64,000 nucleotides of DNA, taken from Anaerolineales bacterium (GTDB lineage: Bacteria; Chloroflexota; Anaerolineae; Anaerolineales; UBA11858). Below are positions 7,648 to 63,927 of this stretch, in pieces. The notes under the pieces were generated by a model, which was given only the letters and a program-made list of their open reading frames with translations, did not search any database and was not told the origin of the DNA. Every line of letters starts with the position of its first letter. Within the stretch, counting starts at the first letter, position 1. The translations under genes and the position numbers were made by a program. Location of the stretch: positions 11,561 through 75,560 of the forward strand of contig JANQED010000128.1 in assembly GCA_028278545.1 (NCBI GenBank), read 5' to 3'.

Positions 7648-7652
7648 GCTCC

Positions 7653-7692: not shown

Positions 7693-7705
7693 TGCGCGCC
7701 TTATC

Positions 7706-11569: not shown

Positions 11570-11590
11570 ACCGTGTTAGGTATTTGAGCA

Positions 11591-11632: not shown

Positions 11633-11739
11633 GCATTTATGGTAGGATTCGGGGGTGCAAAAGCCAATATTCCTGTTATCCGTGTCCAATCTTCCTATCG
11701 ATTTACTGAGGAACAGCGTTTTGTGGTGGAGGGTAGATT

Positions 11740-12234: not shown

Positions 12235-12306
12235 GCCGGGCAAATAAGGTTGCCCACTTGCTACTTGTCTACTTGTTTCCTTTATTCCCACGTATCCCCT
12301 CCCCCG

Positions 12307-13158: not shown

Positions 13159-13218
13159 ATTCCCCACTCGTCCGCGTTTGCCAATGGCCCGCCTTTGGTG
13201 CTCGTGGTTTGGATCAAT

Positions 13219-14406
13219 ATGTCAATAAACGCCATTCGCTTCGAACACATCCAGGTCAAAGATCTGCATGAATTTGCCGAACGAGTTTTGGGGAACTCGA
13301 AAAAAGGTCAATTCGTGCCCATCACCCTGCAGCGTGCCATTGCTCATGCCAACAACCCCTACGCGTCCAAAAATGATGTTGGCCTGTTGGTGGCTATCGA
13401 TGAAGATGACGAAGTGGTGGGCTATTTCGGTATTTTGCCCCTGCTGCTGCGCAACGGGGATGATTATTTCAAAGTCAACTGGTTCACCACCTGGTCGGTG
13501 TCCTCCAAAGTGCGCGGGATGGGAGTCGGCGCCCAGCTCATGAGCGAGGCGCTCGGCCTCAATCAGGATTACTTGATCGTGGGCAGCGTCCATGCCCGGC
13601 GGGTGTGCCGCAAATATGGCTTCTGGGAGCGCCAGCCCCTGACCTATTTTTGGCTGGACACCACGGGTATGGGACATCTCAACCCACTGGTCTGGCTGCG
13701 GCGCGGCTATCGCAAGCTGATGTACCTGTTGCGGATTCGCAGGGAAGTCAAATTGAAGACTCCCTTCATTGAACGCCTGGACGGTTGGGTTGGGCCGGTT
13801 CTAAAGAGATTCTTCTATCTCCTGATCAGCGGCCCCCAAAGCAAAGTTTTAGCGAATATCCGCTTTCGGGAAGTGGACCGTATCCAAAGGGAACCGGCGG
13901 CGCAGGCCCACCGCTCGTCGGTCGAACTGCACCGCGGGGTGGATGCGGTCAATTGGATGCTCCAATACCCCTGGGTGGTCGAGTCTGGTCATTCCATCAC
14001 CGAGGAGATGGATTATTTCTTCAGCGATGCCCGCCCGATGTATCGCCTCATTGCTGTGGAAGTCGCCTCTCCCGAGGATGAATACAAGGGCTTTGTGGTT
14101 TTCTCGATCACCCAAAAGGGCCATAAGTTCATGCTGAAGACTTTGGATTACCACTTTGCTAATCCCTCCGATCGACGCTATGTGCTGGCTTTGGCGGTAC
14201 ACTACGGGCGCGATTTTCTGGCGGATACCATCGAAATCCCGCAGGAAGTTGCTGGGGATTTGCGTCCCCGTCTGATTGCTAAACTGCTTTTGCACAAGAA
14301 AGAACGCATCTATCAATGCAAGCCCAGGGATGATCACAGTCCCCTGGCGCAATGTTGGGAAGATATCACCCTGAAACTCGTCGATGGCGATATGGCCTTT
14401 TCATGA
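13219..14406 (+). CDS. GNAT-family N-acetyltransferase domain protein
   Basis: VVGYFGILP...WSVSSKVRGMGVGAQLM (GNAT motif A); long C-terminal region of unknown fold. Confidence 0.65.
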   Translation: MSINAIRFEHIQVKDLHEFAERVLGNSKKGQFVPITLQRAIAHANNPYASKNDVGLLVAIDEDDEVVGYFGILPLLLRNGDDYFKVNWFTTWSVSSKVRGMGVGAQLMSEALGLNQDYLIVGSVHARRVCRKYGFWERQPLTYFWLDTTGMGHLNPLVWLRRGYRKLMYLLRIRREVKLKTPFIERLDGWVGPVLKRFFYLLISGPQSKVLANIRFREVDRIQREPAAQAHRSSVELHRGVDAVNWMLQYPWVVESGHSITEEMDYFFSDARPMYRLIAVEVASPEDEYKGFVVFSITQKGHKFMLKTLDYHFANPSDRRYVLALAVHYGRDFLADTIEIPQEVAGDLRPRLIAKLLLHKKERIYQCKPRDDHSPLAQCWEDITLKLVDGDMAFS

Positions 14407-29178: not shown

Positions 29179-30123
29179 ATGATTCCTACGACCACCCTGC
29201 CATTTGAAATCCTGCGCTCCGTTTTTGGCGAGAACATGCAAACGGAAGTATCTTTGGCGCGCTATACAGCCGCCCGGGTAGGTGGTTCCGCGGAAGTGCT
29301 CGTTGATGTGAACTCGGTGGAAGAATTGGCTCATGCCGTGACAGAACTTTGGATGCTAGAAGTGCCCTTCTTTATTCTTGGTGGGGGATCGAATGTGCTG
29401 GTCAGTGATGCAGGTGTGCAGGGCGTGGTGGTTCTGAACCGGGCGCGTGAGATCAGTTTCGATCAGGGGAACGATTTCCCTACGGTTTGGGCGGGTTCGG
29501 GCACAAATCTGGGTAATCTGGCCCGGCGGACCGCTGCACGTGGGCTGTCGGGCCTGGAATGGGCCGCAGGGATACCTGGAACGGTCGGAGGTGCTGTTTT
29601 TGGCAACGCCGGTGCGCATGGCGGTGAGGTGGCCGGTTGCCTGGTGATGGCAGAAATCTTGCATCGAGATGGGAATACAGAGAAATGGTCTGCTGATGAG
29701 ATGGGATACGCCTATCGATCCAGCCGCTTGAAGCGTGAGCGATTGGCCGCGACGATCTTGTCGGCGCGATTTGCTTTGGAACATGGTTCTCCCGAGGAAA
29801 TTCAGCAGAAGATGGATGAATTCGTTGCATTCCGCCATCGAACGCAGCCCCCTGGGGCTAGCATGGGCTCCATGTTCAAAAATCCCCCTGGGGATTATGC
29901 CGGGCGCTTGATCGAAGAGGCTGGCCTTAAAGGCACCCAGGTTGGTGAAGCGGAGATCAGCCAACTGCATGCCAATTTCTTCATAAACCATGGTGATGCT
30001 GCGGCGGAGGATATTTTCGCCTTGATTAAATTGACTCGTGAGACCGTGGCCGAGAAATGTGGCGTGGAGCTGGAACTTGAAATTGAATTGGTTGGAGACT
30101 GGCAGGCAGATATTGGATTGTGA
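29179..30123 (+). CDS. murB: UDP-N-acetylenolpyruvoylglucosamine reductase
   Basis: LGGGSNVL, GLEWAAGIPGTVGG, NAGAHG, YRSS, GSMFKNP, HANF. Confidence 0.97.
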   Translation: MIPTTTLPFEILRSVFGENMQTEVSLARYTAARVGGSAEVLVDVNSVEELAHAVTELWMLEVPFFILGGGSNVLVSDAGVQGVVVLNRAREISFDQGNDFPTVWAGSGTNLGNLARRTAARGLSGLEWAAGIPGTVGGAVFGNAGAHGGEVAGCLVMAEILHRDGNTEKWSADEMGYAYRSSRLKRERLAATILSARFALEHGSPEEIQQKMDEFVAFRHRTQPPGASMGSMFKNPPGDYAGRLIEEAGLKGTQVGEAEISQLHANFFINHGDAAAEDIFALIKLTRETVAEKCGVELELEIELVGDWQADIGL

Positions 30124-30133
30124 TGACAGGTAA

Positions 30134-31246
30134 ATGGATCGTAAATTGAAGGTTGGCGTGATTTTTGGTGGTCGGTCTGGGGAGCATGAGGTCTCCTTGA
30201 TGTCCGCGCGTTCTGTTTTGGACGCGCTCGATGCGGATAGATACCAGATCACAGAGATCGGCATCACTCACGATGGAACCTGGCTGGTTGGGGAGGACGT
30301 GCTGGCGTGCTTCCTGTCAGGAGAGGTCGATCACCTAACCCCGGTGACGCTGCTGCCCGACCCAACCCGCAGCGGGATTTATGCTATCCGTGACAGTGAT
30401 CGCGGCGAAGCCATACAGCATCTGCAGGACTTCGATGTTCTCTTCCCTGTTTTACACGGTACTTTCGGTGAAGATGGCACCTTGCAAGGGTTGTTTGAGA
30501 TGGCTGATGTAGCCTACGTTGGCGCAGGTGTTTTGGGCGCCTCTGTAGGGATGGATAAAGGCGTTTTCAAGGCCGTAATGCAGGCCAATGCGATCCCGGT
30601 TGTGGACGGCATCATCGTGCTGCGCCGCGAGCTTGAAACCGGGATGGATGATGTGCTTGACCGTGTCGAAGCTATGGCTGACTATCCCGTTTTCATCAAG
30701 CCGGCTAATATGGGCTCTTCCGTCGGCGTAAGCAAGTCTAAGAATCGCTCGGATTTGCTCGAAGGGCTGATGGAGGCGGCGCGCTTTGACCGGCGAGTGT
30801 TGGTCGAGGCAGGAATCAACGCTCGTGAAATAGAGATCAGTGTGTTGGGCAATGATGACCCTAAGGCCTCCATTCCTGGCGAGATACGCCCGGCGGCGGA
30901 ATTCTATTCCTATGATGCCAAATATCACGATGACCGCTCGGAGGCCCTTATCCCCGCAGATATCCCTGCTGAGACTGCTGAGGAAATGCGAACGACCGCC
31001 GTGCGAGCTTATCAGGCTATAGATTGCGCGGGGATGGCACGGGTTGACTTTTTATTAGATAAGGATAGCGGTGAGTTCTATCTCAATGAACTGAACACCA
31101 TCCCTGGGTTCACCCAGATCAGCATGTATCCCAAGCTATGGGAAGCTACTGGATTGCCTTACCCAGAATTAGTTGACCGTCTGATCGAGTTAGCCTTGGA
31201 GCGACGCGCCGAGCGCGACCGCACTGAATGGCGTTATGAGCGTTAG
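30134..31246 (+). CDS. ddl: D-alanine--D-alanine ligase
   Basis: FGGRSGEHEVSL, LHGTFGEDG, GSSVG, FYSYDAKY (Tyr-type omega loop), NELNTIPGFT. Confidence 0.97.
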   Translation: MDRKLKVGVIFGGRSGEHEVSLMSARSVLDALDADRYQITEIGITHDGTWLVGEDVLACFLSGEVDHLTPVTLLPDPTRSGIYAIRDSDRGEAIQHLQDFDVLFPVLHGTFGEDGTLQGLFEMADVAYVGAGVLGASVGMDKGVFKAVMQANAIPVVDGIIVLRRELETGMDDVLDRVEAMADYPVFIKPANMGSSVGVSKSKNRSDLLEGLMEAARFDRRVLVEAGINAREIEISVLGNDDPKASIPGEIRPAAEFYSYDAKYHDDRSEALIPADIPAETAEEMRTTAVRAYQAIDCAGMARVDFLLDKDSGEFYLNELNTIPGFTQISMYPKLWEATGLPYPELVDRLIELALERRAERDRTEWRYER

Positions 31247-31249
31247 GAG

Positions 31250-32248
31250 ATGACGAAGAGGAGACAGCCCCCAAACCGTTCTGATAGGGTCCGGGACAGA
31301 CGCCGGAGCAGCAAACCCTCTGCGCCCAAGCGGCGGCGCAAGCAGAGCAATGTTGAGCGCGGGAATCCCCCGGTGATGGTGCGCGGCACAAAGTCTACCA
31401 GCGCAGCAAAGCGACCCAAAAAGCGAACCAGACGCGTCAAACGTCGCTTTGATATCGCTCTCCCAACCCCAGGCGTGGAGGTGCGTTTGCCAGCTATCCC
31501 CTCGATCCGGCTGGGTTGGCGGTTGCTTTCCTTTTTACTGGTATTGTTGCTATCGGCAGTTTTGTACTATATGTACAATTCGCCAACCTACCGGATAACC
31601 GATGTGCAGATCGATGGGCTGGTTCGTCTTTCGGCTGATACGATCAACCGTTCGTTGCTGATTTACAACAAGCCAATCTTCATGATCGAACCGGAAGTGT
31701 TGGCAGATCAAATTATCAGCACCTATCCTGGTGTTGTATCAGCCTCAGTGTGGACGGGTTTCCCCGCCAGAGTCGAGGTGATGGTTGAGGAAAGAGAGCC
31801 TGTAGTGGCCTGGGAACTGGGTACGGAGACCCAATGGGTAGATGCCCAAGGGATGTCCTTCCCCAAGCGCGGGGAGGCGGAAAACCTGGTTTGGGTTGTC
31901 GCATCCTCCCCCCCCCCCGCCCCGATCGTCCTGGAGGATGAGTCCACAACGGAAGGAGATGAATCTCTGAAGGCGTTCATGTCATCTGAGATGGTCGAGT
32001 CGATCTTAGCTTTGAGCGGGAATGCCCCAGAGGGCGTCCCGATTGTATTCGATGATCGGCACGGTTTTGGATGGCGTGACCCAGGTGGCTGGGATGTGTA
32101 TTTCGGTACGTCTGCGGCGGATGCCGACATGACGATGAAACTATCTGTCTATGATGCCGTAGTTCGACGTCTGAGCACGGATGGGATACGTCCAGCCATC
32201 ATTAGTGTGGAGTATTTGCATGCCCCATATTACCGTATGGAGCGTTGA
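31250..32248 (+). CDS. ftsQ: Cell division protein FtsQ/DivIB
   Basis: Basic N-terminal tail, one TM, POTRA-like region, FPARVEVMVEEREPV; upstream of ftsA. Confidence 0.8.
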   Translation: MTKRRQPPNRSDRVRDRRRSSKPSAPKRRRKQSNVERGNPPVMVRGTKSTSAAKRPKKRTRRVKRRFDIALPTPGVEVRLPAIPSIRLGWRLLSFLLVLLLSAVLYYMYNSPTYRITDVQIDGLVRLSADTINRSLLIYNKPIFMIEPEVLADQIISTYPGVVSASVWTGFPARVEVMVEEREPVVAWELGTETQWVDAQGMSFPKRGEAENLVWVVASSPPPAPIVLEDESTTEGDESLKAFMSSEMVESILALSGNAPEGVPIVFDDRHGFGWRDPGGWDVYFGTSAADADMTMKLSVYDAVVRRLSTDGIRPAIISVEYLHAPYYRMER

Positions 32249-33495
32249 TGATTATGGATGAGCCTGTAATTGTTGGTATTGATGTTGGCACGACCAAAGT
32301 ATGCACTTTGGTTGCTCGTCTGGAGAGCGACCAACAGTTGCGTATTTTGGGTGTGGGTATAGAGCCTGCCAAAGGAATGCGAAAAGGCACAGTGGTCGAT
32401 ATGACGGCGGCTGGGCAGGCTATCGCCCGCTCGATTGAGAAAGCTGAACGCACATCGGGCTTAGAGATCGAATCTGCTTTGGTGAGTATGGCGGGTGCAC
32501 ACGTCTCTTCGGAGAACAGCCGAGGGGTGGCGGGCGTTTCAAGCCGGACGATTGATGACGAGGATGTCATCCGGGTGGTGGAGGCCGCCAGAGCGGTGAC
32601 CATCCCTCACAACCGCGAGATGATCCATGTCATCCAGCGGGGCTTCGTTGTCGATGGACAGGGCGGCATTCGCAATCCGGTTGGCATGCATGGTTACCGC
32701 CTGGAAGTAGAAACCCACGTGATCACTGCATCGGCGGCCACTGTGGAGAATCTGCGGCAGGCGGTTGCGGCTGCGGGTGTGCGCGCCAGCCAGTTTGTGC
32801 TCAACCCCCTTGCTTCCGCCGAAGTTGTGCTCTCTGAGACGGAGCGGGAGATGGGTGTGGTGGTTTGCGATATCGGCGGCGGTACCACGGATATGGCCGT
32901 TTATATCGAAGGCGATGTGTGGCACACGATGGTGTTGGGCATCGGCGGCAACCATATCACTTCGGATATCGCCCACGGGCTGCACCTGCCGGTGAACCAC
33001 GCAGAAGAAATCAAATTGCAGCACGGCTATGCCCTCGAAAAGCATGTTGATGCCGAGGAGGCTTTCTATATAAACCCCTTTGGAGAAGAGAACCCGGTGT
33101 CCATCAACCGCAAGGAGCTGTCTCATATCATCGAAGCCCGCGTCGAGGAGATCTTTAGCCTGGTGATGCAGGAGATCAAACGCTCTGGTTATGACAGCTT
33201 GTTGCCTGCCGGGATGGTTTTGACCGGAGGGGTCAGCGCTTTGCCGGGTATTCGCCAGTTAGCCAAACAGGTGCTGGGTATGCCGGTGCGGGTTGCCCAG
33301 CCGGAAGGCTTGATCGGCATGGTGGATCAATTAGATTCTCCCGCATATGCAACCAGCGTAGGTTTGCTGCGGTGGGCCATATTGATGAGCGATTTTGTCA
33401 AAACCTTCGACCTGCGTCGTGCACGCCCGCCTCGGGTAAGCAGCGAAGTCGATTGGAAGAAGATGAGAGGTTGGCTGCGGCGATTGTTGCCGTAG
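32245..33495 (+). CDS. ftsA: Cell division protein FtsA
   Basis: IDVGTTKV, DIGGGTTD, GGNHITSDIA, AEEIK, VLTGG; C-terminal amphipathic helix. Exact start uncertain (32245-32254). Confidence 0.97.
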   Translation: MMIMDEPVIVGIDVGTTKVCTLVARLESDQQLRILGVGIEPAKGMRKGTVVDMTAAGQAIARSIEKAERTSGLEIESALVSMAGAHVSSENSRGVAGVSSRTIDDEDVIRVVEAARAVTIPHNREMIHVIQRGFVVDGQGGIRNPVGMHGYRLEVETHVITASAATVENLRQAVAAAGVRASQFVLNPLASAEVVLSETEREMGVVVCDIGGGTTDMAVYIEGDVWHTMVLGIGGNHITSDIAHGLHLPVNHAEEIKLQHGYALEKHVDAEEAFYINPFGEENPVSINRKELSHIIEARVEEIFSLVMQEIKRSGYDSLLPAGMVLTGGVSALPGIRQLAKQVLGMPVRVAQPEGLIGMVDQLDSPAYATSVGLLRWAILMSDFVKTFDLRRARPPRVSSEVDWKKMRGWLRRLLP

Positions 33496-33639
33496 ATAGT
33501 TTAAGGAAATTAATGTGTCTGGTTTTAAGACGTTTGGTAAAATGGGTGAATCCTTGTGTAAATTTCTTTTGACGCCGGAAAACGAGCATGTTTGTGCGCA
33601 AAGGAGATTTTCTAAGGATGAATCGAGGAGGATTCAATA

Positions 33640-34743
33640 ATGCATACAATGAATCAACCAGAGTCATTTGCTCGCATTAAAGTGGTTGGTGTAGGCGGTG
33701 GAGGCTGCAATGCCGTCGATCGAATGATCGAAGAGGGCTTGCAAGGCGTTGAATTCATCGCGGTCAATACGGATGCCCAGGCGTTGGCACTCTCGCACGC
33801 CACAACCCGCGTTCGTATTGGTGATAAACTGACGCGCGGCCTGGGTTCAGGCGGCGATCCCGAAATTGGGCGCAAAGCCGCGGAGGAGTCGGCTGAAGAA
33901 CTCTACAATGTGCTCAAAGGCTCGGATATGGTCTTTGTCACCGCGGGGATTGGCGGAGGTACGGGGACGGGTGCCTCTCCGGTCATTTCTCAGATTGCCC
34001 GTGAGATCGGCGCGCTGACGATTGGCGTGGTCACGCGTCCTTTCACCTTCGAGGGTGCTCGCCGCATCAAGTCAGCGGAAGTGGGCATCACTGGGCTCAA
34101 GGAGCACGCCGACACCTTGATCGTCATTCCTAATGACCGCCTGCTGCAAATCGTCGATAAGCGTTCATCTTTGCAGGAAGCCTTCAAGGTCGCTGATGAC
34201 GTTCTGCGTCAGGGCATCCAGGGTATCTCAGAGTTGATCACCATTCCTGGTTTGATCAACCTTGACTTTGCGGATGTGCGGACGATCATGTCAGAAGGTG
34301 GGGCTGCTTTGATGGCTGTCGGTATGGCAGCGGGTGATGACCGCGCTCGCGATGCTGCTGAGCAGGCTATCTCCAGCCAACTGCTCGATATAACCATCGA
34401 TGGCGCTCGCGGGATTCTGTTCAACGTGACTGGCGGGCAAGGGTTGACGCTCTTCGAAGTCAACCAGGCGGCTGCCATTATCAAAGAGACCGCTCATCCT
34501 GATGTCAACCTGATTTTCGGCGCCGTGATCGACCCCGACATGGGAGAGAATTTGCGCATAACCGTTATTGCCACGGGTTTTGAAAGGTCTGGTATGCCGC
34601 GCAATATCATGGAGCGCGCTCTTCGGCCACCTGAGGTCACTCCAGCGAAAAGTGAGGAAGGCGAGTTCAAGCCGCGTACCTTGAATACAGAAGACCTGGA
34701 TATCCCCACATTTTTGAGGAACCGAGTCCGGTCCGATAGTTAG
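33640..34743 (+). CDS. ftsZ: Cell division protein FtsZ
   Basis: [32 protein letters not shown]-terminal LDIPTFLR. Confidence 0.99.
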
Positions 34744-35585: not shown

Positions 35586-38159
35586 ATGGTTTTAAAAGAT
35601 GTGAACACAGAACAAATACCTTCGTTGCCAGAAGACGCACGCCAGGTGGATCTGTCGGAAAACGCATATCAGGTGTTTAGGCGGCGTTACATGCGTCGAG
35701 ACAAGCATGGGCAACCGGCTGAGACGATCGAAGGTACTTTCTGGCGAGTGGCTTGTCATATCGCAGCTGCTGAAGGAGGATGGGGTGAAGATACCTCTGA
35801 GGTGGCGCGCCGGTTTTATGATCTGCTTGTCGAAAAACGATTTCTGCCAAACTCCCCCACCTTCACTGGCGCGGGGACGCCTCTAGGACAATTGGCTGCC
35901 TGTTTTGTGCTGCCCCTCAGCGATGATATGGGGCGCTGGCATGATGGTATTTTCCAAACCCTGCGCAATGCAGCTTTGATTCAGCAAACGGGTGGCGGGA
36001 ATGGTTTTTCATTCTCGCGCCTGCGACCAGCGGGATCCTTCATCAAGACCTCTGCCGGAAAAGCGACCGGCCCGGTGGGGTTCTTGAGTGTTTACGATAA
36101 AGCATTCGGGGAGATCGCCCAGGGCGGTACGCGCCGAGGGGCGAATATGGCCGTCTTGCGGGTAGATCATCCCGATATTGAAGATTTCATCACCTGTAAG
36201 ACCGATGAAAACGCCATCACAAACTTTAACATCTCTGTGGGGATCACAGATGCCTTTATGCAAGCCGTCGAAGATGACGATTTGTGGGAATTGCGCTTCC
36301 CAGACATCGATCATCCGGATTATCGCAAGTATAGCGGGACGATTGAGCAAGCTGAAGCGGATGGTATACCGATCAAAATCTATAGACGCGTGCGAGCTAG
36401 GGATTTGTTCGATAAGATCGTCGCGCAGGCCCATCATAATGGCGAGCCGGGAGTGCTCTTTTTAGATGCTGCCAACCGCGCTAATCCTGTTCCGCAATTG
36501 TATGCTTTAGAGGCCACAAATCCGTGCGGCGAGCAATTTCTAGGCCCTTATGAGAATTGCTGCCTGGGCTCGGTCAATCTGGCTCAGCACATGGGACCTG
36601 ATAATTCTGTCGATTGGTTGAAGCTGCGGACTTCAGTTGAGTTGGCGACGCGTTTCCTGGATGGTGTTGTCGATGCCAACGCTTATGTCCCTGATGTACC
36701 GGAGTTGAGAGAAGCTGCTCTCAATGCCCGGAGGATTGGATTGGGCATCATGGGCTTGGCAGATTTGATGTACCACATTGGCATCCGGTATGGTTCTTCT
36801 GAAGGGCAGGAGTTCGCAGCCCAGGTAATGGAGTTTGTGCGCTATTACGCGATGCGTACCAGTATCGATCTGGCGAAAACAAGCGGCGCGTTCCCGGCAA
36901 TCTCAGGGAGCATTTACGACCCGACCGATATGACCTGGGAGCCGCCTTCATCGATCGTGCCATACCGGATGGATTGGGGCCGTCCACAGTTGGATTGGGA
37001 TGAGATCGTTAAAGGAATTCAGCAATATGGCATTCGCAATGCGGCTCAGACTACCATTGCGCCTACGGGCACCATTGCCACAGTAGCTGGCTGTGAAGGT
37101 TACGGCTGCGAGCCGGTCTTTGCGTTGGCTTATATCCGTCATGTGGATGATGGTGGCGAGGATCTGGCACTTACTTACTCCAGCCCGTTGTTTGATGAGG
37201 CCTTGGTCGATGCTGGCTTGGATGAAGATGAGCGTCAGCAGATTATCGAGCAAGTATTGGAGAGCGGCACGTGCCAGAATGTGGAGATGGTGCCGGAACA
37301 CTTGCGTGACACCTTTGTGGTATCACAGGATATTTCGGCGGTAGAGCATGTTCAAATGCAGGCCGCCTTGCAGGCCTTCGTGGACAACAGTCTCTCTAAG
37401 ACGATCAATTTTCCTGAAGATGCTATGGAGGAAGATGTCGCCACGGCCTATAAATTGGCCTGGGAGTTAGGCTGTAAGGGGACAACAGTTTACGTCACCG
37501 GCTCACGCCATAAGGTCGTCTTGGAAACGCAAACTACGGCTATGGGGAAAGGAGATGGTGACAGAGCGATTGTCCCCCAGGCGGCTCATTTGACTCTTTG
37601 GCATGATACCAAGAAGCCACGCCCGCGCCGTTTGAAAGGGTACACCTATAATGTCAACACGCCATTAGGCAAAGCCTTTGTGACCGTCAACGAGAATGGG
37701 GACGATCAGCCTTTTGAGGTGTTTATCACATCTGCCAAGGCCGGCTCGGACACTGCTGCGGTCTCAGAAGCGATTGGCCGTTTGCTCTCTTACACATTGA
37801 GATTGGCATCCCCCATTGCTCCGCGCGAGCGGCTGTACGAGATTGTGCTACAGCTCTCGGGGATTGGCGGCGGACGCCCCTTGGGGTTTGGCCCCAACCG
37901 GGTGCGCTCCTTACCCGATGGCGTCTCTCAGGCTTTGCGCGAGTACCTGGATCACTCCCTCGATGAGTACGCCTGGCGTGAAGTCGACCGCGACAACGGG
38001 CAGCCTGATGAACCTTTTGGATTGCCCCACGATGGCTTAGATGACTCTCTCCAAGGGTCTTTTGAAATCGGAGATTTATGCCCGGATTGTGGGCAGGCAG
38101 CCTTGGTCAACGAGGAAGGCTGTAGGAAATGTTACGCCTGTGGGTACAGTGAATGCTGA
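35586..38159 (+). CDS. nrdJ: Adenosylcobalamin-dependent (class II) ribonucleotide reductase with C-terminal TSCPD-like/Zn-ribbon region
   Basis: FLPNSPT, LAACFV, RRGANM, TNPCGEQ, IAPTGT, SKTIN; C-terminal CPDC...CYACGYSEC; no beta subunit nearby. Confidence 0.93.
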
Positions 38160-44693: not shown

Positions 44694-45692
44694 TTACATA
44701 ACAAATTGCTTTAGGATCGTATCGACGATCAAGCCCAATAAGAACCAGCTTCCAAAGCGCTTGTTATGGTGAAATGCTGCTGCGACGAAGTAATTGGGCC
44801 ACACGTCTGGGTAATCATCGGGTTTCTCTGCCGGCTTGGGGGCCTGGAACATGGGCCAAATCTCCAAAAATACTTTCACATTTAGAGCCACGATCAACAT
44901 AAACGGTGTGAAAAAGCCTGTTGCAATCAGATAGAAGGTGAAAAGATACTGGAAGATCAGCATTCCCATGACAGTGAAACGAGATATTTTCTCGCCAAGG
45001 ACGACAGGCAGTGTGCGGATATTCTTGTCCCTGTCTACCTGGTACTTGTCGATGTGTTTGCCGAAGATCACCCCGGTAACTCCTAAGGCGTAGGGTAAAC
45101 TGGCGATCACCACGTTCCAGTCCCACCCACCTGCGATCACATAGTAGCCGCCACCGATCATCAACGGCCCCCATACGATAAGGACGGCGATTTCCCCCAG
45201 GGCGATATATTTCAGCGGCCAGGTGTAAAATAATACGAAGAAAGCCCCTAATCCCATGAACCACAGCGTCGACTCGCCGCGCAGGAAGATCAAAGCCACC
45301 CCGCAGGCCGCGGCCAACAACCCAGTTACCGCGGCATAGGTCAGCAGCCCTCTTTTGTCCAACAGCCCATGAACCAAGGGTTGCAGCCCGTATTGGGAGC
45401 GGTAATAGTTGTCTTGATCGACACCACGGGTGAAATCGGTGTAGTCATTGAGCAGGTTGTTGGTGGCATGGGCCAGGATCAGCCCAAGGGTAACCAGAAC
45501 CCACAACCCCAGATCGAAATTTCCCGCTCGATAAGCAAACATCCCCGCCAGCGCAGCCGAGAGGAAGGTCATGACTAACACGGCTGCACGAGTGGCGATC
45601 AACCACTTCGAAACGATATCGAGTTCCTCCCACTCCGCTTTACTAATGCGGGGGATGACGCGCAAGGCGTTTCGCCACATCGCAATATTCAT
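44694..45692 (-). CDS. menA: UbiA-family prenyltransferase (MenA-like)
   Basis: ATR, NNLLNDYTDFTRGVD, YTWPLKYIALGE, D...D....RTLPV.LG. Confidence 0.75.
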   Translation of the reverse strand: MNIAMWRNALRVIPRISKAEWEELDIVSKWLIATRAAVLVMTFLSAALAGMFAYRAGNFDLGLWVLVTLGLILAHATNNLLNDYTDFTRGVDQDNYYRSQYGLQPLVHGLLDKRGLLTYAAVTGLLAAACGVALIFLRGESTLWFMGLGAFFVLFYTWPLKYIALGEIAVLIVWGPLMIGGGYYVIAGGWDWNVVIASLPYALGVTGVIFGKHIDKYQVDRDKNIRTLPVVLGEKISRFTVMGMLIFQYLFTFYLIATGFFTPFMLIVALNVKVFLEIWPMFQAPKPAEKPDDYPDVWPNYFVAAAFHHNKRFGSWFLLGLIVDTILKQFVM

Positions 45693-45788: not shown

Positions 45789-46997
45789 TCAGCCTAGAGT
45801 GTCGATCACCTCGTGCAATATCTGGCTGACGATTTCAACCTGTTCTTCCGTCATCACGCCTGAAAAAGGAATCGCGAGTCCGCGGCGGCCTAAATCTTCC
45901 GTGATGGGGAAGTCGCCCTCTTTATACCCAAAGCGTTCGACCATATATGGCTGCAAGTGAATGGGGATGAAATAGGGCCGGCTGGGGATGCCGCGTTCTT
46001 TAAGCCCCTCGGCGACTCGAAAGCGGTCGATTCCGGGAGCGAGCCGAATCACATAGACGAACCAGCTCATGCGCGTTGTGTCAGGAATAACTTTCGGTGT
46101 TTCAACACCGGGTATCTCATCCAGCCGCTCTTGGTACCAATTGGCGACTTGTTCCCGTTTGGTGAGGAGTTCATCGAGGCGGCTCATCTGCACGCGCCCA
46201 AGAGCAGCGCTCATCTCGTCAATGCGATAGTTGTAGCCCAAATAAGTGTGTTGCAGCCAGGTATCGCCGGGGGAGCGCCCCTGATTTCGCAGTGCGCACA
46301 TGATATCAGCGGCCTCATCATCGTCGGTGACGATAATTGCCCCTTCTCCGGTGGTGATCTGCTTGTTGGGGTAGAAGGCAAATACGCCATAATCGCCCAG
46401 GGTCCCCGCGGGACGTTTCTTGTACTCAGCACCGATTGCTTCGCAAGAATCCTCGATGACCGTGAGATCGAACTCTCGAGCAGTTTCGAGGATAGGGTCC
46501 ATATCCGCCGGTTGCCCAAAGACATCTACAGGAAGGATTGCTTTCAGTTGCGCCTCTGGGGATGCTCCTTTCCGGGGAAGCCATTTTCGGTTTGCCAAAT
46601 CCCCAGCGGTCAAGTCCTTCGCCGCTTGGTGAACCTGCTGGGGATCGATATTGCCTGTCAGAGGGTCTATATCTACAAATATAGGCACAGCACGCTCAAA
46701 CAGCAGCACATTCGCCGATGCAACAAATGAGAACGGCGTGGTGATCACCAGGTCACCGTCTTTGATATCTGCGGCATGAACACACAAATGCAGACCGGCG
46801 GTTCCTGAGCTGACTGCAATGGCATGTCGGCTACCGATATGATTTCGAACGGCGTCTTCGAAGCCTAGTGTCTCTCCCCCCATGCTCAGGCGCGTGGTTT
46901 CCAAGACGGCTTGAACGGCCTCTTGCTCGGTTTCTGTCAGGTCAGGGGCTGACATTGGCACAAGGGGGAAGGCGTTGGAGGGGTTTGTTTTCTTCAA
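45789..46997 (-). CDS. DegT/DnrJ/EryC1/StrS sugar aminotransferase
   Basis: AVSSGTAGLHL, TPFSFVAS, IEDSCEAIG, PLP lysine in FYPNKQITTGEG, GYNYR. Confidence 0.95.
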   Translation of the reverse strand: MKKTNPSNAFPLVPMSAPDLTETEQEAVQAVLETTRLSMGGETLGFEDAVRNHIGSRHAIAVSSGTAGLHLCVHAADIKDGDLVITTPFSFVASANVLLFERAVPIFVDIDPLTGNIDPQQVHQAAKDLTAGDLANRKWLPRKGASPEAQLKAILPVDVFGQPADMDPILETAREFDLTVIEDSCEAIGAEYKKRPAGTLGDYGVFAFYPNKQITTGEGAIIVTDDDEAADIMCALRNQGRSPGDTWLQHTYLGYNYRIDEMSAALGRVQMSRLDELLTKREQVANWYQERLDEIPGVETPKVIPDTTRMSWFVYVIRLAPGIDRFRVAEGLKERGIPSRPYFIPIHLQPYMVERFGYKEGDFPITEDLGRRGLAIPFSGVMTEEQVEIVSQILHEVIDTLG

Positions 46998-47132
46998 ATG
47001 GGAACCTTCTCTACACGTATGAAATCATAGCGCGTCGTGATTGACGGCGGCTGGAGGTTGAAAGGGGAGTTGCGGTCAACCAATTACGGCAGGAATCATA
47101 CCATAACAACCCATATGATAGAATCTCTCAGT

Positions 47133-47747
47133 ATGTTTCTCCCAGCGGATGTTCCCTTGTCGAAGCGCATCTTCGATTTATCCTTGACCATACCGGGTTT
47201 GATCCTCATTTCACCACTTTTAGCGGTCGTGGCTATTCTACTGCGACTCTTCCATGGTAAACCTGTCTTATTTAGCCAGGTGAGGCCTGGCTATCGAGGT
47301 GAGTTGTTCGCAGTATATAAGTTTCGCACCATGACCGACCGCCGCGATGATGCTGGAAATCTGCTCCCAGACGAGCAGCGCTTGACCAGGTTGGGGCGTT
47401 TTTTGCGGGGTACCAGTCTGGATGAGTTGCCGGAGTTATTCAATGTGTTGCGCGGTGAGATGAGCCTGGTAGGGCCGCGCCCTTTGTTGGTGCAATACCT
47501 GGAGCGTTACTCTCCTGAGCAAGCACGCCGCCACGATGTACTTCCAGGGATCACAGGTTGGGCGCAAATCAATGGCCGCAATGTGCTTTCTTGGGAAGAT
47601 AAGTTCCGCCTAGATGTCTGGTATGTTGATCACTGGTCTTTATGGTTGGATATCAAAATTCTGGCATTGACCTTCTGGAAAGTGATCAAGCGCGAGGGGA
47701 TCAGCCAGCCCGGTCATGCAACGGCGGAAGAATTTATGGGAAATTAG
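47133..47747 (+). CDS. Bacterial sugar transferase (PglC-like monotopic phosphoglycosyl transferase)
   Basis: KRIFD, KFRTM, SLDELPEL.NVL.GEMSLVGPRP, PGITGWAQING. Start placed at ATG 47133 (47115 is an alternative). Confidence 0.93.
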   Translation: MFLPADVPLSKRIFDLSLTIPGLILISPLLAVVAILLRLFHGKPVLFSQVRPGYRGELFAVYKFRTMTDRRDDAGNLLPDEQRLTRLGRFLRGTSLDELPELFNVLRGEMSLVGPRPLLVQYLERYSPEQARRHDVLPGITGWAQINGRNVLSWEDKFRLDVWYVDHWSLWLDIKILALTFWKVIKREGISQPGHATAEEFMGN

Positions 47748-47829: not shown

Positions 47830-48726
47830 ATGAATTATATCGGTGAGATCGCTGCTCTGGCCACATCGTTGGCCTTTTCTTTTGGTTCGACTTTTCTGAC
47901 CCTTGGCGGACGCCGCGTTGGCTCGATGGTGCTCAATCGCACGCGCTTGCTGCTGGCGATCCTGTTCCTCGGCGTGACTCATTGGGCCACGTTGGGCATC
48001 CCCCTGCCGTTCCAGGCTGAACCCCGTCGCTGGCTGTGGCTGGGTCTATCCGGCATCGTCGGTTTGGTGCTGGGGGATATCTTTCTTCTCCAGGCTTTCG
48101 TGTGGATTGGGCCGCGCCTTTCGATGTTGATGATGAGTTTGGCTCCAATCTTCGCCGCCTTCCTGGCCTGGATATTTCTCGGTGAGCGCATGGTGTGGGG
48201 GCAGATTGTTGGTGTCGTCTTCACCGTGACGGGGGTGGCATGGGTAGTGCTAGAGCGCAACGGCAACAAGAAAGTTGCTAACCCCCATTTCGCCCGCGGC
48301 ATCCTCTATGGGCTGGGTGGTGCGATTGGTCAGGCAGCCGGGCTGGTGCTGGCGAAGAACGGCCTGGGCGGCGACTTCTCGCCCATCTCAGCCAACCTCA
48401 TCCGCATGATCACGGCGGCATTGGTCTTGTGGGTGATTACCTTGATCCAGCATCAGGTCAAAGCGACTGTGTTGACTTTGCATCGTAATCGCCGTGGGAT
48501 GCTGCATATTCTGTTGGGCTCGTTTTTTGGGCCTTTCCTGGGTGTCTCGCTTTCGATGTTGGCGATTCAACATGCCGAGATGGGCGTAGCCAGCACGCTG
48601 ATGGCCTTGCCTCCGGTCTTTTTGCTTCCTATAAGCTATGTTGTCTTCAAGGAGCGCTACGGCTGGGGAGCCATCCTGGGCACTTTTGTCGCTACCGCGG
48701 GTGTTGCGGTGCTGTTTCTGGTATGA
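47830..48726 (+). CDS. DMT/EamA family transporter
   Basis: About 10 TM in two repeats; LSGIVGLVLGD, LAPIFAAFLAWIFLGE. Confidence 0.9.
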   Translation: MNYIGEIAALATSLAFSFGSTFLTLGGRRVGSMVLNRTRLLLAILFLGVTHWATLGIPLPFQAEPRRWLWLGLSGIVGLVLGDIFLLQAFVWIGPRLSMLMMSLAPIFAAFLAWIFLGERMVWGQIVGVVFTVTGVAWVVLERNGNKKVANPHFARGILYGLGGAIGQAAGLVLAKNGLGGDFSPISANLIRMITAALVLWVITLIQHQVKATVLTLHRNRRGMLHILLGSFFGPFLGVSLSMLAIQHAEMGVASTLMALPPVFLLPISYVVFKERYGWGAILGTFVATAGVAVLFLV

Positions 48727-48771: not shown

Positions 48772-50715
48772 ATGACGGATTCAAACGATCTTTACCGCCA
48801 GCTTTACCGCATCCGCCGCTTCGAGGAGACGGTCTTAGATAACTTCTCTAAGGGAGTGTTTTTTGGGACGACGCACACGTATTTAGGGCAGGAAGCCAAT
48901 GCAGTTGGCGTGCTGGCGCATCTGCAGGATGGCGAGATCGTTTTCAGCAATCACCGCTGCCATGGGCATTTTTTGGCCTATGGCGGTGATATGCGCGCGC
49001 TTTTTGCCGAATTGATGGGCAAGTCCACAGGGGTTTGCGGCGGGCGGGGGGGCTCTCAACATCTGCACTGGCAGAACTTCTATTCCAACGGCGTGCAGGG
49101 CGGCATCCTGCCTGTCGCTGCGGGCATGGCGCTGGCCGAAAAACGGAGGCAGAGCGGCAAACTTGTCATTGCCTTTTTGGGTGACGGCACATTCGGTGAA
49201 GGCGTGCTCTATGAGGCGCTCAACATGGCTTCGTTGTGGGAGGCGCCGATTTTGTTTGTAGTCGAGGATAACCGCATTGCCCAGACGACGCCGGTAGAAC
49301 TGGCCCTGGCCGGGTCGATAACCTCCCGGTGCATGGCCTTTGATATCCCTGCGGTTGAAATCGATTCCAGTGGCGTGTTGGAGGTCTCGTCGCATGCAGA
49401 GCGGTTATTGGATGAAATCCGACTTCAAGGTGGTCCGCGGGCTTTGGTCGTACATACCTGTCGGTTTGGGCCTCATTCCAAAGGGGATGACACGCGAGAC
49501 CCTGCGGTGGTTGCCGCCTTCAGGCGCGAACGTGATCCCCTGATGATCCATGCACCCCGCCTTGACCCGGAGGCGCGCGCCGCCATCGAAGCTGAAGTCA
49601 ACCTTGAAGTGGAAACGGCCTTTGCCCAGGCGATGGATGATCCATGGCCGGTCGCTGATTGGCAGCCGTCCGTGCAAACGACCCAACATCAACCATCAAC
49701 ATCCAGCGACCAACCTAGCGTGCTTAAATCTCTCAACGCCGCCCTTCATCAGGCCCTTTCCAAAGATGATGGTTTCGTTGTATTGGGTGAAGATATCCTG
49801 GATCCTTACGGGGGAGCGTTCAAGGTCACTCAGGGGCTCTCAGAAGCGTTTCCTGAGCGTGTTTTGACCACCCCTATCTCTGAAGCGGGCATCGTCGGTG
49901 TGGCGGCTGGGATGGCTTTACGCGGCCTGAGGCCGGTTGTGGAGATCATGTTTGGGGATTTCGTCACCCTGATCGCCGACCAGGTGATCAATCATGTTGC
50001 CAAGTTCCGCTGGATGTACAACGATCAGGTGCGAGTCCCCTTGGTGATCCGCACGCCGATGGGCGGGCGGCGCGGTTATGGCCCCACCCACAGCCAGACG
50101 CTGGAGAAGCTCTTTTTGGGTGTGCCGGGCCTGCGCGTCGTAGCGCCTACGGCCTTGGGCGCCCCGGGTGATTTGCTGGCCCAGGCCATTATAGATGACG
50201 ACCCCGTTCTGTTTGTGGAGAATAAGCTGCTGTACCTGCAAAAACTTCACCACGGAGATGTTTTGAGCGATTTTGAACTGCACAGTCATTCAGTATCTGG
50301 CACATATGCGCCTACATACACCCTTTCGATGCGGGGAGCGCCCGCGCCGGGGCTGACCATCCTGGCTTATGGGTACATGGCTGAATTAGCCCGGCAAGCA
50401 GTGTTCCAACTGGCGTATGAGCATGAGATTTTTGCTGAGTTGGTCGTGCCGACGCAGCTTTCCCCCTTTGAAAATGATCCCATCAGCGCATCCATTGGGC
50501 GCACGCGCAGAGTATTGGCCGTGGAAGAGGGCACCCTGACCCTGGGCTGGGGCGCAGAAATCCTGGCTCGCGCATCTGAAGAGATGGGGACTAATTTGCT
50601 CGTTTCTCGGCGGGTAGCGGCACGGGATTTGCCCATTCCCGCCTCGGGTCCGCTGGAACAGGCGGTGCTTCCCGGCGTCGCCGATATTGTCGAGGCTGCC
50701 CGAAAGATGGTATAA
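48772..50715 (+). CDS. Fused 2-oxoacid dehydrogenase-type E1 alpha/beta (ThDP enzyme)
   Basis: Alpha: HTYLGQEA, NHRCHGH, GRGGSQH, ThDP motif GDG...EDN, RFGPHS. Beta: LGEDI, TPISEAG, VEIMFGDF, YGPTHSQ, VEEG. Confidence 0.92.
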   Translation: MTDSNDLYRQLYRIRRFEETVLDNFSKGVFFGTTHTYLGQEANAVGVLAHLQDGEIVFSNHRCHGHFLAYGGDMRALFAELMGKSTGVCGGRGGSQHLHWQNFYSNGVQGGILPVAAGMALAEKRRQSGKLVIAFLGDGTFGEGVLYEALNMASLWEAPILFVVEDNRIAQTTPVELALAGSITSRCMAFDIPAVEIDSSGVLEVSSHAERLLDEIRLQGGPRALVVHTCRFGPHSKGDDTRDPAVVAAFRRERDPLMIHAPRLDPEARAAIEAEVNLEVETAFAQAMDDPWPVADWQPSVQTTQHQPSTSSDQPSVLKSLNAALHQALSKDDGFVVLGEDILDPYGGAFKVTQGLSEAFPERVLTTPISEAGIVGVAAGMALRGLRPVVEIMFGDFVTLIADQVINHVAKFRWMYNDQVRVPLVIRTPMGGRRGYGPTHSQTLEKLFLGVPGLRVVAPTALGAPGDLLAQAIIDDDPVLFVENKLLYLQKLHHGDVLSDFELHSHSVSGTYAPTYTLSMRGAPAPGLTILAYGYMAELARQAVFQLAYEHEIFAELVVPTQLSPFENDPISASIGRTRRVLAVEEGTLTLGWGAEILARASEEMGTNLLVSRRVAARDLPIPASGPLEQAVLPGVADIVEAARKMV

Positions 50716-50815: not shown

Positions 50816-51949
50816 GTGGGGCAGGCTGAATTGGGCACACATAATTCCATAATCATCCCCCTGATCAACCCCAACGAACCCGAGGCCTTGCTGGCCGACT
50901 TGCATGTTGAAGATGGTCAGCGGGTTGCCGCGAACGAGTTGATCTGTACGCTGGAAACGACCAAATCTACGGCTGAGGTGTTGGCCGAGGGCGAGGGCTT
51001 TATCGTTGGGCTGCGTTTCAATGTCGGTGATACGGTGCGGGCCGGGGACATTCTGTGTTATCTGGCTGACTCGCCTGATGAGTTGCCCCAAGAAGCAGAA
51101 TCAACAGCGTTGGATGCCGGCAACCAGGTTGAAGGTGAGACCGAGGCTCCCCCTGAAGGGCTGCGCATCACCCAACCAGCGCTGAATCTGGCCCGGGAGC
51201 TAGGCGTCCCATTGGATGCATTTCCGATAGGCCCCCTCGTTACTGAGCAGATGGTCAGCGCGCGGGCGCGGGATCAGGAGGTCGCCTTCCAAGTCCCCAA
51301 GGGCGAGTTCGATCCCATGGCGATCATCATCTATGGCGGCGGTGGACATGGCAAGGCGCTGCTGGACTTATTAAGGGCCTTGGGCACTTACCGCATCGTG
51401 GGATTCGTGGACGATGGTCTTGCGGCTGGCGAGCAGATCATGGGGGCACCGGTCTTGGGCACCGGGGAGGTGCTGGGGGATTTGTTCGATCAAGGTGTGC
51501 GCTTGGCGGTCAACGCCGTGGGCGGCATTGGCGATGTGGCTGTGCGGGTGGAGGTCTTCCAACGCCTGGCGGAGAACGGCTTTAGCTGCCCGGCGGTGGC
51601 CCATCCAAGGGCCTATATAGAACCAGGCGCAACGTTAGCCCCGGGAGTGCAAGTATTCCCAAACGCTTATGTGGGCAGCGATGTCCGGGTTGGTTTTGGG
51701 AGTATTGTCAATACGGGGTCAATAATCTCGCACGATTGCACCTTGGGCAACTATGTCAATATATCCCCTGGAGCCATCCTGGCAGGGGAAGTCGCCGTAG
51801 GAGATGGCGCTCTGGTGGGGATGGGGGTGACGGTCAATTTGCGAGTTGAGATCGGCGCTGGTGCCCGCGTGGGGAATGGCGCAACGGTGATATCTGATGT
51901 GCCCGCCAATGGAGTGGTGCGTGCCGGAACGATCTGGCCGGATAGATAA
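50816..51949 (+). CDS. Fusion of lipoyl domain, peripheral-subunit-binding-like domain and PglD/NeuD-type sugar acyltransferase
   Basis: Lipoyl motif LETTKSTAEV...GDTVRAGDIL; ITQPALNLARELGV (PSBD-like); YGGGGHGK...GFVDD (PglD N-domain); hexapeptide repeats with NTGSIISHDC. Start uncertain. Confidence 0.85.
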   Translation: MGQAELGTHNSIIIPLINPNEPEALLADLHVEDGQRVAANELICTLETTKSTAEVLAEGEGFIVGLRFNVGDTVRAGDILCYLADSPDELPQEAESTALDAGNQVEGETEAPPEGLRITQPALNLARELGVPLDAFPIGPLVTEQMVSARARDQEVAFQVPKGEFDPMAIIIYGGGGHGKALLDLLRALGTYRIVGFVDDGLAAGEQIMGAPVLGTGEVLGDLFDQGVRLAVNAVGGIGDVAVRVEVFQRLAENGFSCPAVAHPRAYIEPGATLAPGVQVFPNAYVGSDVRVGFGSIVNTGSIISHDCTLGNYVNISPGAILAGEVAVGDGALVGMGVTVNLRVEIGAGARVGNGATVISDVPANGVVRAGTIWPDR

Positions 51950-63228: not shown

Positions 63229-63927
63229 ATGAAAGTTCTCGCTGTGATCCCAGCCCGGGGCGGTTCGAAAAGTATCCCCCACAAGAATATTGTGTCTGTA
63301 GGGGGGAAACCATTGATTGCCTGGACAATTGAGGAAGCCCAAAGATCGAAACATATTGACCGGTTGATCGTCTCTACCGATAGCGATCAAATCGCTGAGA
63401 TTGCAGTTGAATATGGCGCTGAAGTGCCCTTCAAGAGACCCGCAGAACTTGCCGCCGATGATACACCGGGGATCGAGCCGATCATTCACGCTGTGCGTTG
63501 GCTGGAAGAGAATCAAGAATATAAACCGGATTGTGTGATGTGTTTGACGCCAACGTCCCCTCTGCGTTCATCGGCTGATATCGATATCGTGGTTGAACTG
63601 ATGGATCAGAAGGGAACAGATGCAGTTGTTAGCGTGGTATTGGCCAAGCATCACCCATATTGGATGAAGTCGATAAGCTCTACGGGGTTTATGCTTGATT
63701 TTCTTGCTCAAGAAGACTTTATCCCCAGGCGACAGGAATTACCACCTGTTTATGCGCTGAATGGCTCGATATACCTGGCTAGGCGAGAGATCTTGCTTGA
63801 GAAACGAACTTGGTATACATCGAAAACCTATGCTTATGTCATGCCTGAAGATCGATCTATCGACATAGATTCCCAATGGGATTTGAAGTTGGCAACGCTG
63901 ATGATGCAGGACAGGATCGGTCAATGA
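63229..63927 (+). CDS. neuA: Acylneuraminate (nonulosonate) cytidylyltransferase
   Basis: IPARGGSKSIPHKN, VSTD, RPAELA.D, PTSPLR, RQ, NGSIY, SIDID. Confidence 0.93.
   Translation: MKVLAVIPARGGSKSIPHKNIVSVGGKPLIAWTIEEAQRSKHIDRLIVSTDSDQIAEIAVEYGAEVPFKRPAELAADDTPGIEPIIHAVRWLEENQEYKPDCVMCLTPTSPLRSSADIDIVVELMDQKGTDAVVSVVLAKHHPYWMKSISSTGFMLDFLAQEDFIPRRQELPPVYALNGSIYLARREILLEKRTWYTSKTYAYVMPEDRSIDIDSQWDLKLATLMMQDRIGQ

Follow-up and report, generated by a model that had tools for sequence, protein, structure and literature searches.

Why an enzyme of the 2-oxoacid dehydrogenase type should stand in a small cluster of sugar genes, and which acyl group it would supply there, is the question raised by a stretch of 64,000 nucleotides from an Anaerolineales bacterium (assembly GCA_028278545.1, contig JANQED010000128.1, positions 11,561 to 75,560 of the forward strand; this whole stretch is called the window below). 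One open reading frame (ORF) of the window encodes an E1 dependent on thiamine diphosphate (ThDP), and the next encodes a lipoyl domain joined to a sugar N-acyltransferase of the PglD type (the fusion). Lipoyl arms feed coenzyme A (CoA) or, in a few antibiotic pathways, an acyl carrier protein (ACP), and N-acyltransferases of the PglD family draw on acyl-CoA. An earlier note, made from the letters of the sequence, had proposed that this E1 donates a non-acetyl unit such as glycolyl. Our analysis points in the same direction: in the trees the E1 shares a clade with the renieramycin-cluster protein RenH and with E1s from actinomycete cassettes belonging to non-ribosomal peptide synthetase (NRPS) and polyketide synthase (PKS) clusters. 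The answer that we favor, to which we give equal measures of credence and doubt, is a CoA-independent relay resembling pyruvate dehydrogenase (PDH), in which a glycolyl group from a ketose phosphate N-glycolylates a 4-amino-4,6-dideoxy sugar. The features of the E1 are these:

48772..50715, + strand: fused E1 alpha-beta ThDP enzyme of 647 residues (P0121), ATG start, with E1_dh, Transket_pyr and Transketolase_C domains
49048..49062, + strand (residues 93-97): GGSQH loop, in which Gln replaces the Met of ordinary E1s, followed by a 3-residue deletion and an NGVQ turn
49462..49491, + strand (residues 231-240): RFGPHSKGDD, the loop of the catalytic alpha-His, in the short form HSKGDDTR of the clade
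49786..49830, + strand (residues 339-353): GEDILDPYGGAFKVT, the start of the beta half, with a clade-specific 1-residue insertion and PYGGAFK
50065..50097, + strand (residues 432-442): GRRGYGPTHSQ, the loop of the beta catalytic His, in which RGYGPTHSQ is clade-specific

The ORF starts with the ATG at 48772 and stops at 50715. Because E1_dh (163.6 bits), Transket_pyr (109.8 bits) and Transketolase_C (56.2 bits) occur in it together, all above their Pfam cut-offs, it comprises alpha and beta subunits in one chain, the alpha half at about residues 1-300 and the beta half at 318-647. An alternative GTG at 48730 lies upstream and would add 14 residues; the relatives begin at the ATG at 48772. A very short N-terminus had earlier been counted among the departures of this E1 from housekeeping PDH, and we had to reject it as a distinctive mark: 14 residues stand ahead of the first conserved helix, and two other bacterial E1 alphas, of a T. 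thermophilus plasmid and of C. difficile, have 13 and 18, so that the E1 is short only in relation to some references such as S. aureus PDH (58) and branched-chain 2-oxoacid dehydrogenase (BCKDH; 87).

The kinship of the E1 was investigated by searching 72,556 plasmid records in translation; 524 of them matched the alpha half and 737 the whole E1, and RenH was the top plasmid match for both. RenH, from the tetrahydroisoquinoline cluster on a plasmid of Ca. Endohaliclona renieramycinifaciens, is, like the window E1, a single fused alpha-beta chain (673 residues); it is 43% identical to the window E1 over 654 residues (BLASTP, E 2e-180), and the four loop motifs are near letter-identical in the two proteins. 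RenI, next after RenH, consists of a lipoyl domain and a 2-oxoacid_dh E2 catalytic domain. The runners-up were E1 alpha/beta pairs in NRPS/PKS clusters on actinomycete replicons; the cassette of Streptomyces sp. NBC_01136 has the order ACP-E1a-E1b-E2, and that of S. cattleyicolor pSCAT has the order KSIII-ACP-E1a-E1b-E2 (KSIII, ketoacyl synthase III) and adjoins a type I PKS.

Separate trees of the alpha and beta halves, with 27 rows each, contained the window E1, 12 relatives chosen from the 119 listed so as to cover 57-78% identity, RenH and two actinomycete cassette E1s, together with the genome's two ordinary E1s, S. aureus PDH, annotated BCKDH and acetoin-type E1s and six other plasmid E1s; a Nonomuraea locus (L015) was left out of both. 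In both trees a single clade, with a support of 100/100 and stems of 1.34 (alpha) and 1.19 (beta) changes per column, unites the 13 E1s of the window family with RenH and the two cassette E1s; all others fall outside, including the genome's two ordinary E1s and the PDH, BCKDH and acetoin-type references. A quick tree of 39 rows, to which eight loci of a genome scan and E1s of related genomes were added, gave the clade a support of 99. A grouping with canonical PDH or BCKDH, named in the earlier note as the outcome that would speak against its proposal, did not occur.

The same clade can be recognized by its loops. Its marks in the alpha half are GTTHT, SNHR(C/G)HGH, GGSQH with the 3-residue deletion, (N/T)G(V/I)Q, GDGT.GEG, IAQ(T/S) and the short HSKGDDTR loop, and those in the beta half are a 1-residue insertion with PYGGAFK, FGDF (which one of the two cassette E1s has as FADF) and RGYGPTHSQ. 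The shared marks comprise two deletions and one insertion. The four departing active-site motifs pointed out earlier are present as described, and their core residues are invariant across 22 aligned family members (58-78% identity). Compared with 11 non-clade E1s in the same alignment, among them the two of this genome, S. aureus PDH and one E1 each with BCKDH and acetoin-type annotation, the family has the 3-residue deletion after GGSQH, the shortened HSKGDDTR loop and the 1-residue insertion before PYGGAFK. GGSQH by itself is not unique to the clade, since it occurs also in the canonical-type E1 of another Chloroflexota genome (G287). A Tyr-to-His change at the position of G. stearothermophilus Y102-alpha was likewise tried as a clade mark and rejected, because His is found there in five non-clade E1s and in G287.

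We also looked for two of the clade marks in genomes, taking one per species. At least 600 stretches were found, 578 of them encoding relatives, and the best 80 were examined. Nearly all of these 80 loci are from actinomycetes, and three are in metagenome-assembled genomes (MAGs) from other phyla; an E1 beta gene is adjacent in 77, a classical E2 in 75 and a recognizable ACP in 21, and none of the 80 has PglD, PglE or PglC. No locus among the 80 bears the name of a QncN, NapB or SclQ producer. The relatives of the window E1 and of its fusion carry the names of Anaerolineales or Chloroflexota MAGs, and more than 100 of them (57-78% identity) are labelled just "sugar acetyltransferase" or "alpha-ketoacid dehydrogenase."

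As read from the alignments, the loops of the E1 diverge from those of ordinary E1s without loss of catalytic residues. In the alpha half, H35, R62, D138, N167 and H235, which are catalytic or cofactor residues, correspond to H63, R90, D167, N196 and H263 of human PDH E1 alpha; in the beta half, E371, F394, F397 and H440 are kept, E371 and H440 corresponding to E59 and H128 of the G. stearothermophilus beta subunit. The alpha His pair, Arg, Asp and Asn and the beta Glu and His are invariant in the 22 sequences. In the part of PMC2663715 available to us, a Glu, two Phe and a His of the G. stearothermophilus E1p beta subunit are described as contacting pyruvate, the His at its carboxylate and oxo groups. 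Near the cofactor, the window E1 differs from human PDH E1 alpha by F61T, L64T, Y89H, M124Q, V138Q and M200Q (human numbering, read from the alignment). We take these six positions to be part of the active-site lining.

Peng et al. reportedly described in 2012 the passage of a two-carbon (C2) unit from ketose phosphates via dihydroxyethyl-ThDP to a glycolyl-lipoyl intermediate. The part of PMC6335953 available to us credits QncN, QncL and QncM with directing how a C2 glycolicacyl unit is made and attached, and says that SclQ2, SclQ3 and SclQ4 (ThDP domain; Pyr and TK_C; lipoyl and acyltransferase), with the ACP SclQ1, are homologues of QncN/L/M; deletion of sclQ1-4 left residual scleric acid only, and feeding of glycolic acid brought production back to a similar level. 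A portion of PMC13249901 assigns to Qcn7 and Qcn9 the conversion of ketosugars into the glycolic unit by a two-component transketolase reaction and calls RenH and RenI homologous, the function of RenH itself being assigned there by homology only. QncN/QncL/QncM (quinocarcin), NapB/NapD (naphthyridinomycin) and SclQ1-4 (scleric acid), which make glycolyl-S-ACP from ketose phosphates, likewise use an E1-like ThDP enzyme and a lipoyl domain as an acyl relay, and the domain lists in the available text (PMC6335953) agree with the window system in their E1 alpha, E1 beta and lipoyl components. Actinomycete cassettes of the Qnc/Scl-type layout share both the clade and the loop marks with the window E1. 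In the Qnc, Nap and Scl systems an E2 catalytic domain is present and an ACP receives the unit on behalf of an NRPS, whereas the window cluster has a PglD-type core, no ACP and a glycan context. The kinship with RenH thus speaks for the non-acetyl donor proposed earlier, and glycolyl is the acyl group that homology would assign to it.

The second half of the question concerns the acceptor and leads to the gene that follows the E1. Its features are these:

50816..51949, + strand: E2 analogue of 377 residues, with a lipoyl domain, a putative docking linker and a PglD/NeuD-type left-handed beta-helix (LbH) sugar N-acyltransferase (Pfam Biotin_lipoyl, PglD_N, Hexapep)
50963..50965, + strand: Lys50 of the motif ETTKS, presumably the residue that is lipoylated (ETTK[S/A/T] in 120 of 120 relatives; invariant in the alignment)
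51152..51256, + strand (residues 113-147): conserved linker, LRITQPAL..LARELG..GPLVTE, aligning with peripheral-subunit-binding domains (PSBDs); R117, I118, P121, A122 and T143 invariant
51320..51946, + strand (residues 169-377): PglD-like N-acyltransferase domain, with 4m98, PerB 4ea7 and VioB 7txp as nearest solved relatives

By its domain make-up the fusion is an E2 analogue with a PglD-type core in place of the E2 catalytic core. It scores 180.1 against TIGR03570 (NeuD/PglB/VioB; cut-off 160.8), its lipoyl domain scores 42.2 bits against PF00364, and the Pfam scan found no PF00198 (2-oxoacid_dh E2 catalytic domain) in it, PglD_N and Hexapep occupying that place. The order of lipoyl domain, putative docking domain and acyltransferase is that of PDH and BCKDH E2s (G. 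stearothermophilus, human, P. putida), and the E1s of these complexes have the fold families, the ThDP/Mg motif, the catalytic His pair and the beta Glu in common with the window E1. The window system differs from them in the fusion of alpha and beta, in the clade-specific loops and indels, in a core of another fold family and in the proposed acceptor, which is the amine of a sugar and not CoA.

By its ETTK motif, set against the ETSK of the glycolyl-cassette E2s and the (T/N)DK of ordinary lipoyl domains, the arm of the fusion looks akin to that of the cassette E2s. Among 74 E2s beside clade E1s in actinomycete loci, 67 read ETSK, one ETTKA and one ESTKA, with five unmatched by the pattern, and 61 have an NxND start; all five ordinary lipoyl domains compared (four E2s and a stand-alone T. 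thermophilus protein) read (T/N)DK, namely ETDK in three and ENDK and QNDK in one each. RenI has an ETSK lipoyl domain and a short-loop linker that aligns with that of the window fusion, and it ends in a 2-oxoacid_dh catalytic domain where the fusion ends in PglD. The linker aligns with the PSBDs of ordinary E2s as well as RenI and has the shorter loop. When the linker was modelled in complex with two E1 beta halves, the ipSAE (interaction prediction score from aligned errors) was 0.69, against 0.01 for the best control, with a partner pLDDT (predicted local distance difference test) of at least 76 and 100% contact agreement between runs; a score of 0.69 is attained by 116 of 157 solved complexes and by 2 of 215 mismatched pairs. 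The modelled contacts join linker residues 117, 119-122, 139-141 and 143-144 to E1 residues 500, 520-524 and 548-552, in the C-terminal domain of the E1. The model suggests that the linker docks on the E1, and it should be read as likeness, not as binding, because E1-PSBD complexes have already been solved.

In the PglD domain, the catalytic His306 (nucleotides 51731-51733) is invariant and is matched in the alignment by the catalytic residue of PerB and PglB, also His, and a PerB mutant entry differs at the aligned residue. The entry 4m98 is the acetyltransferase domain of Neisseria PglB, and the PglD part of the fusion aligns also with 3bss. PglD of C. jejuni, the Neisseria PglB domain, PerB and VioB align with the C-terminal 209 residues and have the catalytic His in common; these are stand-alone enzymes of about 200 residues that use acetyl-CoA, and the fusion differs from them by the extra N-terminal lipoyl domain and linker and by the dedicated E1 that adjoins it. 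At the catalytic His the fusion reads SHD, and at the position of the second His it has Asn, as do 119 of 120 close relatives (117 by pattern, two by eye). These residues, which are indeed present, had been thought to fit an altered donor, and we rejected them as a donor mark: a plain PglD of the same order (G085) reads SHE with Asn, and the fused proteins of two related genomes (G175 and G226) keep the second His in their PglD parts. No E1-lipoyl-PglD triple fusion was found among longer proteins, where the four matches all combine PglD with other sugar enzymes; this is weak evidence.

Whether the E1 and the fusion belong together was examined in 301 evenly drawn Chloroflexota genomes. The fusion was matched at E 1e-20 or better in 39 of them and in full length in six, including the window's own; any E1-like match was found in 79 of the 301, a tally that includes two unpublished genomes (G227 and G038), which enter into no other result. 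In all five other genomes with a full-length fusion (G076, G148, G175, G226 and G287), an E1 adjoins it. In the first four, identities are 57-68%; the E1 is encoded by separate alpha and beta genes in G076, G148 and G175, and its reading is interrupted by one TGA at the junction in G226. Most or all clade marks are kept in the three of these E1s that were checked (G076, G175, G226). The fifth case is special: the fusion of G287 is 30% identical, has the lipoyl motif ETDKV and keeps the second His, and the E1 beside it is of canonical type, split and outside the clade (L152, G287:C2:995000-1014000, about 7645-13616), in a locus with Wzy, Wzz, GT4, a sulfotransferase, an aminotransferase and a PglC-like gene. 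It would seem from this that E1-fed sugar N-acylation originated, or its partners were paired anew, on more than one occasion. In G085 (L153, G085:C8, 8372-9654), a PglC 75% identical to ours is directly followed by the plain PglD mentioned above, which is 61% identical and has no lipoyl domain, with no clade E1 beside it; this locus has the appearance of the cluster lacking its E1, EamA and lipoyl-linker parts.

From these observations the following sequence of reactions can be proposed. The E1 would take a C2 glycolaldehyde unit onto ThDP as dihydroxyethyl-ThDP, most likely from a ketose phosphate and less likely from hydroxypyruvate, and would oxidize it onto the lipoyl-Lys50 of the docked fusion to give S-glycolyl-dihydrolipoyl. 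The fusion would have kept the E2 layout of lipoyl domain and E1-docking linker, its core being swapped for a trimeric PglD-type sugar N-acyltransferase. We infer that this PglD domain takes the acyl group directly from its own swinging arm and acylates with it the 4-amino group of a 4-amino-4,6-dideoxy hexose in nucleotide-linked form, a sugar that a PglE-like aminotransferase would provide; a PglC-like enzyme would then transfer the sugar phosphate to polyprenyl phosphate, and the reduced arm would be re-oxidized by a dihydrolipoamide dehydrogenase (E3) encoded elsewhere. The broader claim, that a PDH-like machine has been rebuilt for glycan tailoring, carrying a ketose-phosphate C2 unit through glycolyl-lipoyl to a nucleotide-sugar amine via a PglD trimer, and that the fusion is the first lipoyl-dependent sugar N-acyltransferase, is advanced tentatively, with slightly more doubt than belief on our part. 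The results suggest a previously undescribed CoA-free decoration of a bacterial amino sugar. Nothing linking a lipoyl domain to PglD, NeuD or bacillosamine was found in the literature searched, and PMC4875605 was rejected as a relevant precedent because "lipoylation" means fatty acylation in the part of it available to us.

Several observations weigh against the glycolyl relay. The window family is sister to the E1s of the biosynthetic gene clusters, not nested among them, with identities of 43-45%, and the substrate could have shifted between the two. The kin present in the trees are RenH and two cassettes; the link to QncN and NapB runs through statements in the available portions of two papers, and the SclQ sequences are likewise not in the trees. 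No Pfam model, E3_binding included, matched the linker in a scan up to E 10. At 61% identity, the PglD domain is close to the plain G085 enzyme, which lacks a lipoyl arm, and comparison of the fused forms with that enzyme revealed no substitution peculiar to arm-fed transfer. In this 85%-complete assembly E3-like genes are present, and no single E3 ORF reaches the curated cut-off. G287, moreover, pairs a canonical-type E1 with a lipoyl-PglD fusion, so that the architecture alone is no argument for a non-acetyl donor; clade membership is the argument. The earlier contention that a dedicated E1 would be needless for plain acetylation is weakened by the same pairing.

The alternative that survives best, although we consider it unlikely, keeps the same lipoyl-arm relay and lets the E1 decarboxylate pyruvate, yielding an ordinary N-acetyl sugar such as N,N'-diacetylbacillosamine (diNAcBac) without acetyl-CoA. 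The E1 belongs after all to the E1_dh family, human PDH E1 alpha is the top-scoring solved structure for its alpha half, acetyl would be the natural guess for the G287 fusion, and the complete catalytic set of 2-oxoacid E1s is kept, including the pyruvate-contacting beta His, because of which a 2-oxoacid could still be the donor. The top curated models are also those of housekeeping PDH E1 alpha (TIGR03182, 230.4 bits) and beta (PRK09212, 201 bits), yet these scores are far below the cut-offs of 393.85 and 321. Against an acetyl product speak further the position of both E1 halves in the clade of RenH and the cassettes, apart from every PDH-like reference, and the replacement of the hydrophobic active-site residues M124, V138 and M200 of human E1 alpha by the polar Gln and of L64 by Thr, which is shared only with the glycolyl-cassette E1s; the genome, besides, is already supplied with two ordinary E1/E2 operons and with a plain PglD paralogue.

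A donor other than pyruvate but still a 2-oxo acid appears quite improbable to us: hydroxypyruvate would again give glycolyl, and another polar 2-oxo acid a different N-acyl group. Such a donor would suit the retained 2-oxoacid catalytic set and the more polar pocket given by the clade-specific changes, and no phosphate-binding site is evident in the E1 sequence. Ketose phosphates, however, are the donors of the characterized relatives in the available parts of the literature (PMC6335953, PMC13249901), and the cluster lacks a gene that would produce an unusual 2-oxo acid. Very remote, finally, is the idea that the E1 and lipoyl domain are not the sugar's acyl source, PglD using acetyl-CoA and the lipoyl-linker serving assembly, regulation or another acyl supply: the closeness of the PglD domain to the plain G085 enzyme, without any arm-specific change, and the lack of sugar genes beside the triad in four of the five related genomes would agree with it, and it is opposed by the lipoyl Lys kept in all 120 relatives, the adjacent E1 in five of five genomes, the lack of any E2 catalytic domain or ACP in the window cluster (Pfam) that could receive the acyl group, and a layout that copies an E2 with a PglD trimer in the place of the core.

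If the glycolyl relay is true, machines of the 2-oxoacid dehydrogenase type would gain a new class of acceptor and glycan tailoring a new class of donor, and the glycolyl E1 of antibiotic clusters would have a second role in the cell-surface glycan synthesis of a large uncultured lineage. NamH and CMAH make N-glycolyl sugars by hydroxylating an existing N-acetyl group; the end product would likewise be an N-glycolyl amino sugar here, but glycolyl would first be assembled as a thioester and then moved whole, a route needing neither CoA nor N-acetyl hydroxylation. The lipoyl-PglD relay appears widespread in uncultured Anaerolineales, and the parallel in G287 with a canonical E1 suggests a general design in which the E1 sets the acyl group.

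The genes preceding the E1 in the small sugar cluster, whose order is aminotransferase, PglC, EamA, E1 and fusion, followed by rpsO and pnp, are these:

45789..46997, - strand: DegT/PglE-type sugar aminotransferase, which probably makes the acceptor, a 4-amino sugar (PF01041, 355.8 bits)
47037..47747, + strand: small PglC-type polyprenyl-phosphate sugar-phosphate transferase (PF02397, 219.5 bits)
47830..48726, + strand: EamA/DMT (drug/metabolite transporter) membrane protein between PglC and E1 (PF00892), of uncertain membership in the system

The closest NCBIfam models of the aminotransferase are PseC and LegC, both below cut-off. No EamA gene stands beside the E1/fusion pair in G076, G148, G175, G226 or G287. 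Directly downstream of the aminotransferase and on the same strand, a UbiA-family prenyltransferase (44694-45692, - strand) is MenA-like by NCBIfam, with all models below cut-off. Farther away in the window, an ordinary run of division and cell-wall genes with murB-, ddl-, ftsQ-, ftsA- and ftsZ-like ORFs, as judged from the translations, occupies 29179-34743, and a large ribonucleotide-reductase-like ORF follows the division genes at 35586-38159.

Elsewhere, the genome encodes a PglF-type dehydratase on another contig (C191), a lipoate-ligase domain of the LplA/LipB type (125 bits) and the two ordinary E1/E2 operons already mentioned. Among sequencing runs, no RNA run is listed as containing this DNA; the single run listed is of DNA and may be the one from which the assembly was made. 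Its best dihydrolipoamide-dehydrogenase match (G000:C49:22129-23444) is split into two adjacent frames (model positions 2-365 and 371-448), which is a frameshift or an assembly error, and a second, partial E3-like copy is cut by the end of C73. The plain PglD paralogue (G000:C165:80260-80865; L154:5261-5866), of about 220 residues and 39% identical, lies on the same contig 17 kb downstream of the fusion, outside the window and beyond a cytidylyltransferase-like gene (window 63229-63927), in a region that may be a separate nonulosonic-acid or amino-sugar cluster. Another type of fused E1-like protein is indicated by a 2.2-kb contig (G000:C158:2-1954), on which a frame of 651 residues, cut at the contig start, matches positions 121-294 of the E1_dh model.

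Two further arrangements were noticed among the plasmids. The T. thermophilus plasmid (L017, 5998-8185) carries E1 alpha and beta genes, about 40% identical and outside the clade, then a stand-alone lipoyl protein of 82 residues and a TRAP transporter; the annotation shows no E2 catalytic domain there. Plasmids of Leisingera (L020) and Rhodococcus (L021) carry cassettes of acsA, E1, E2 and ACP, the E1 being fused in Leisingera, and their E1s form a well-supported pair beside the C49 E1 of the window's genome, representing another E1/E2 system that ends on an ACP.

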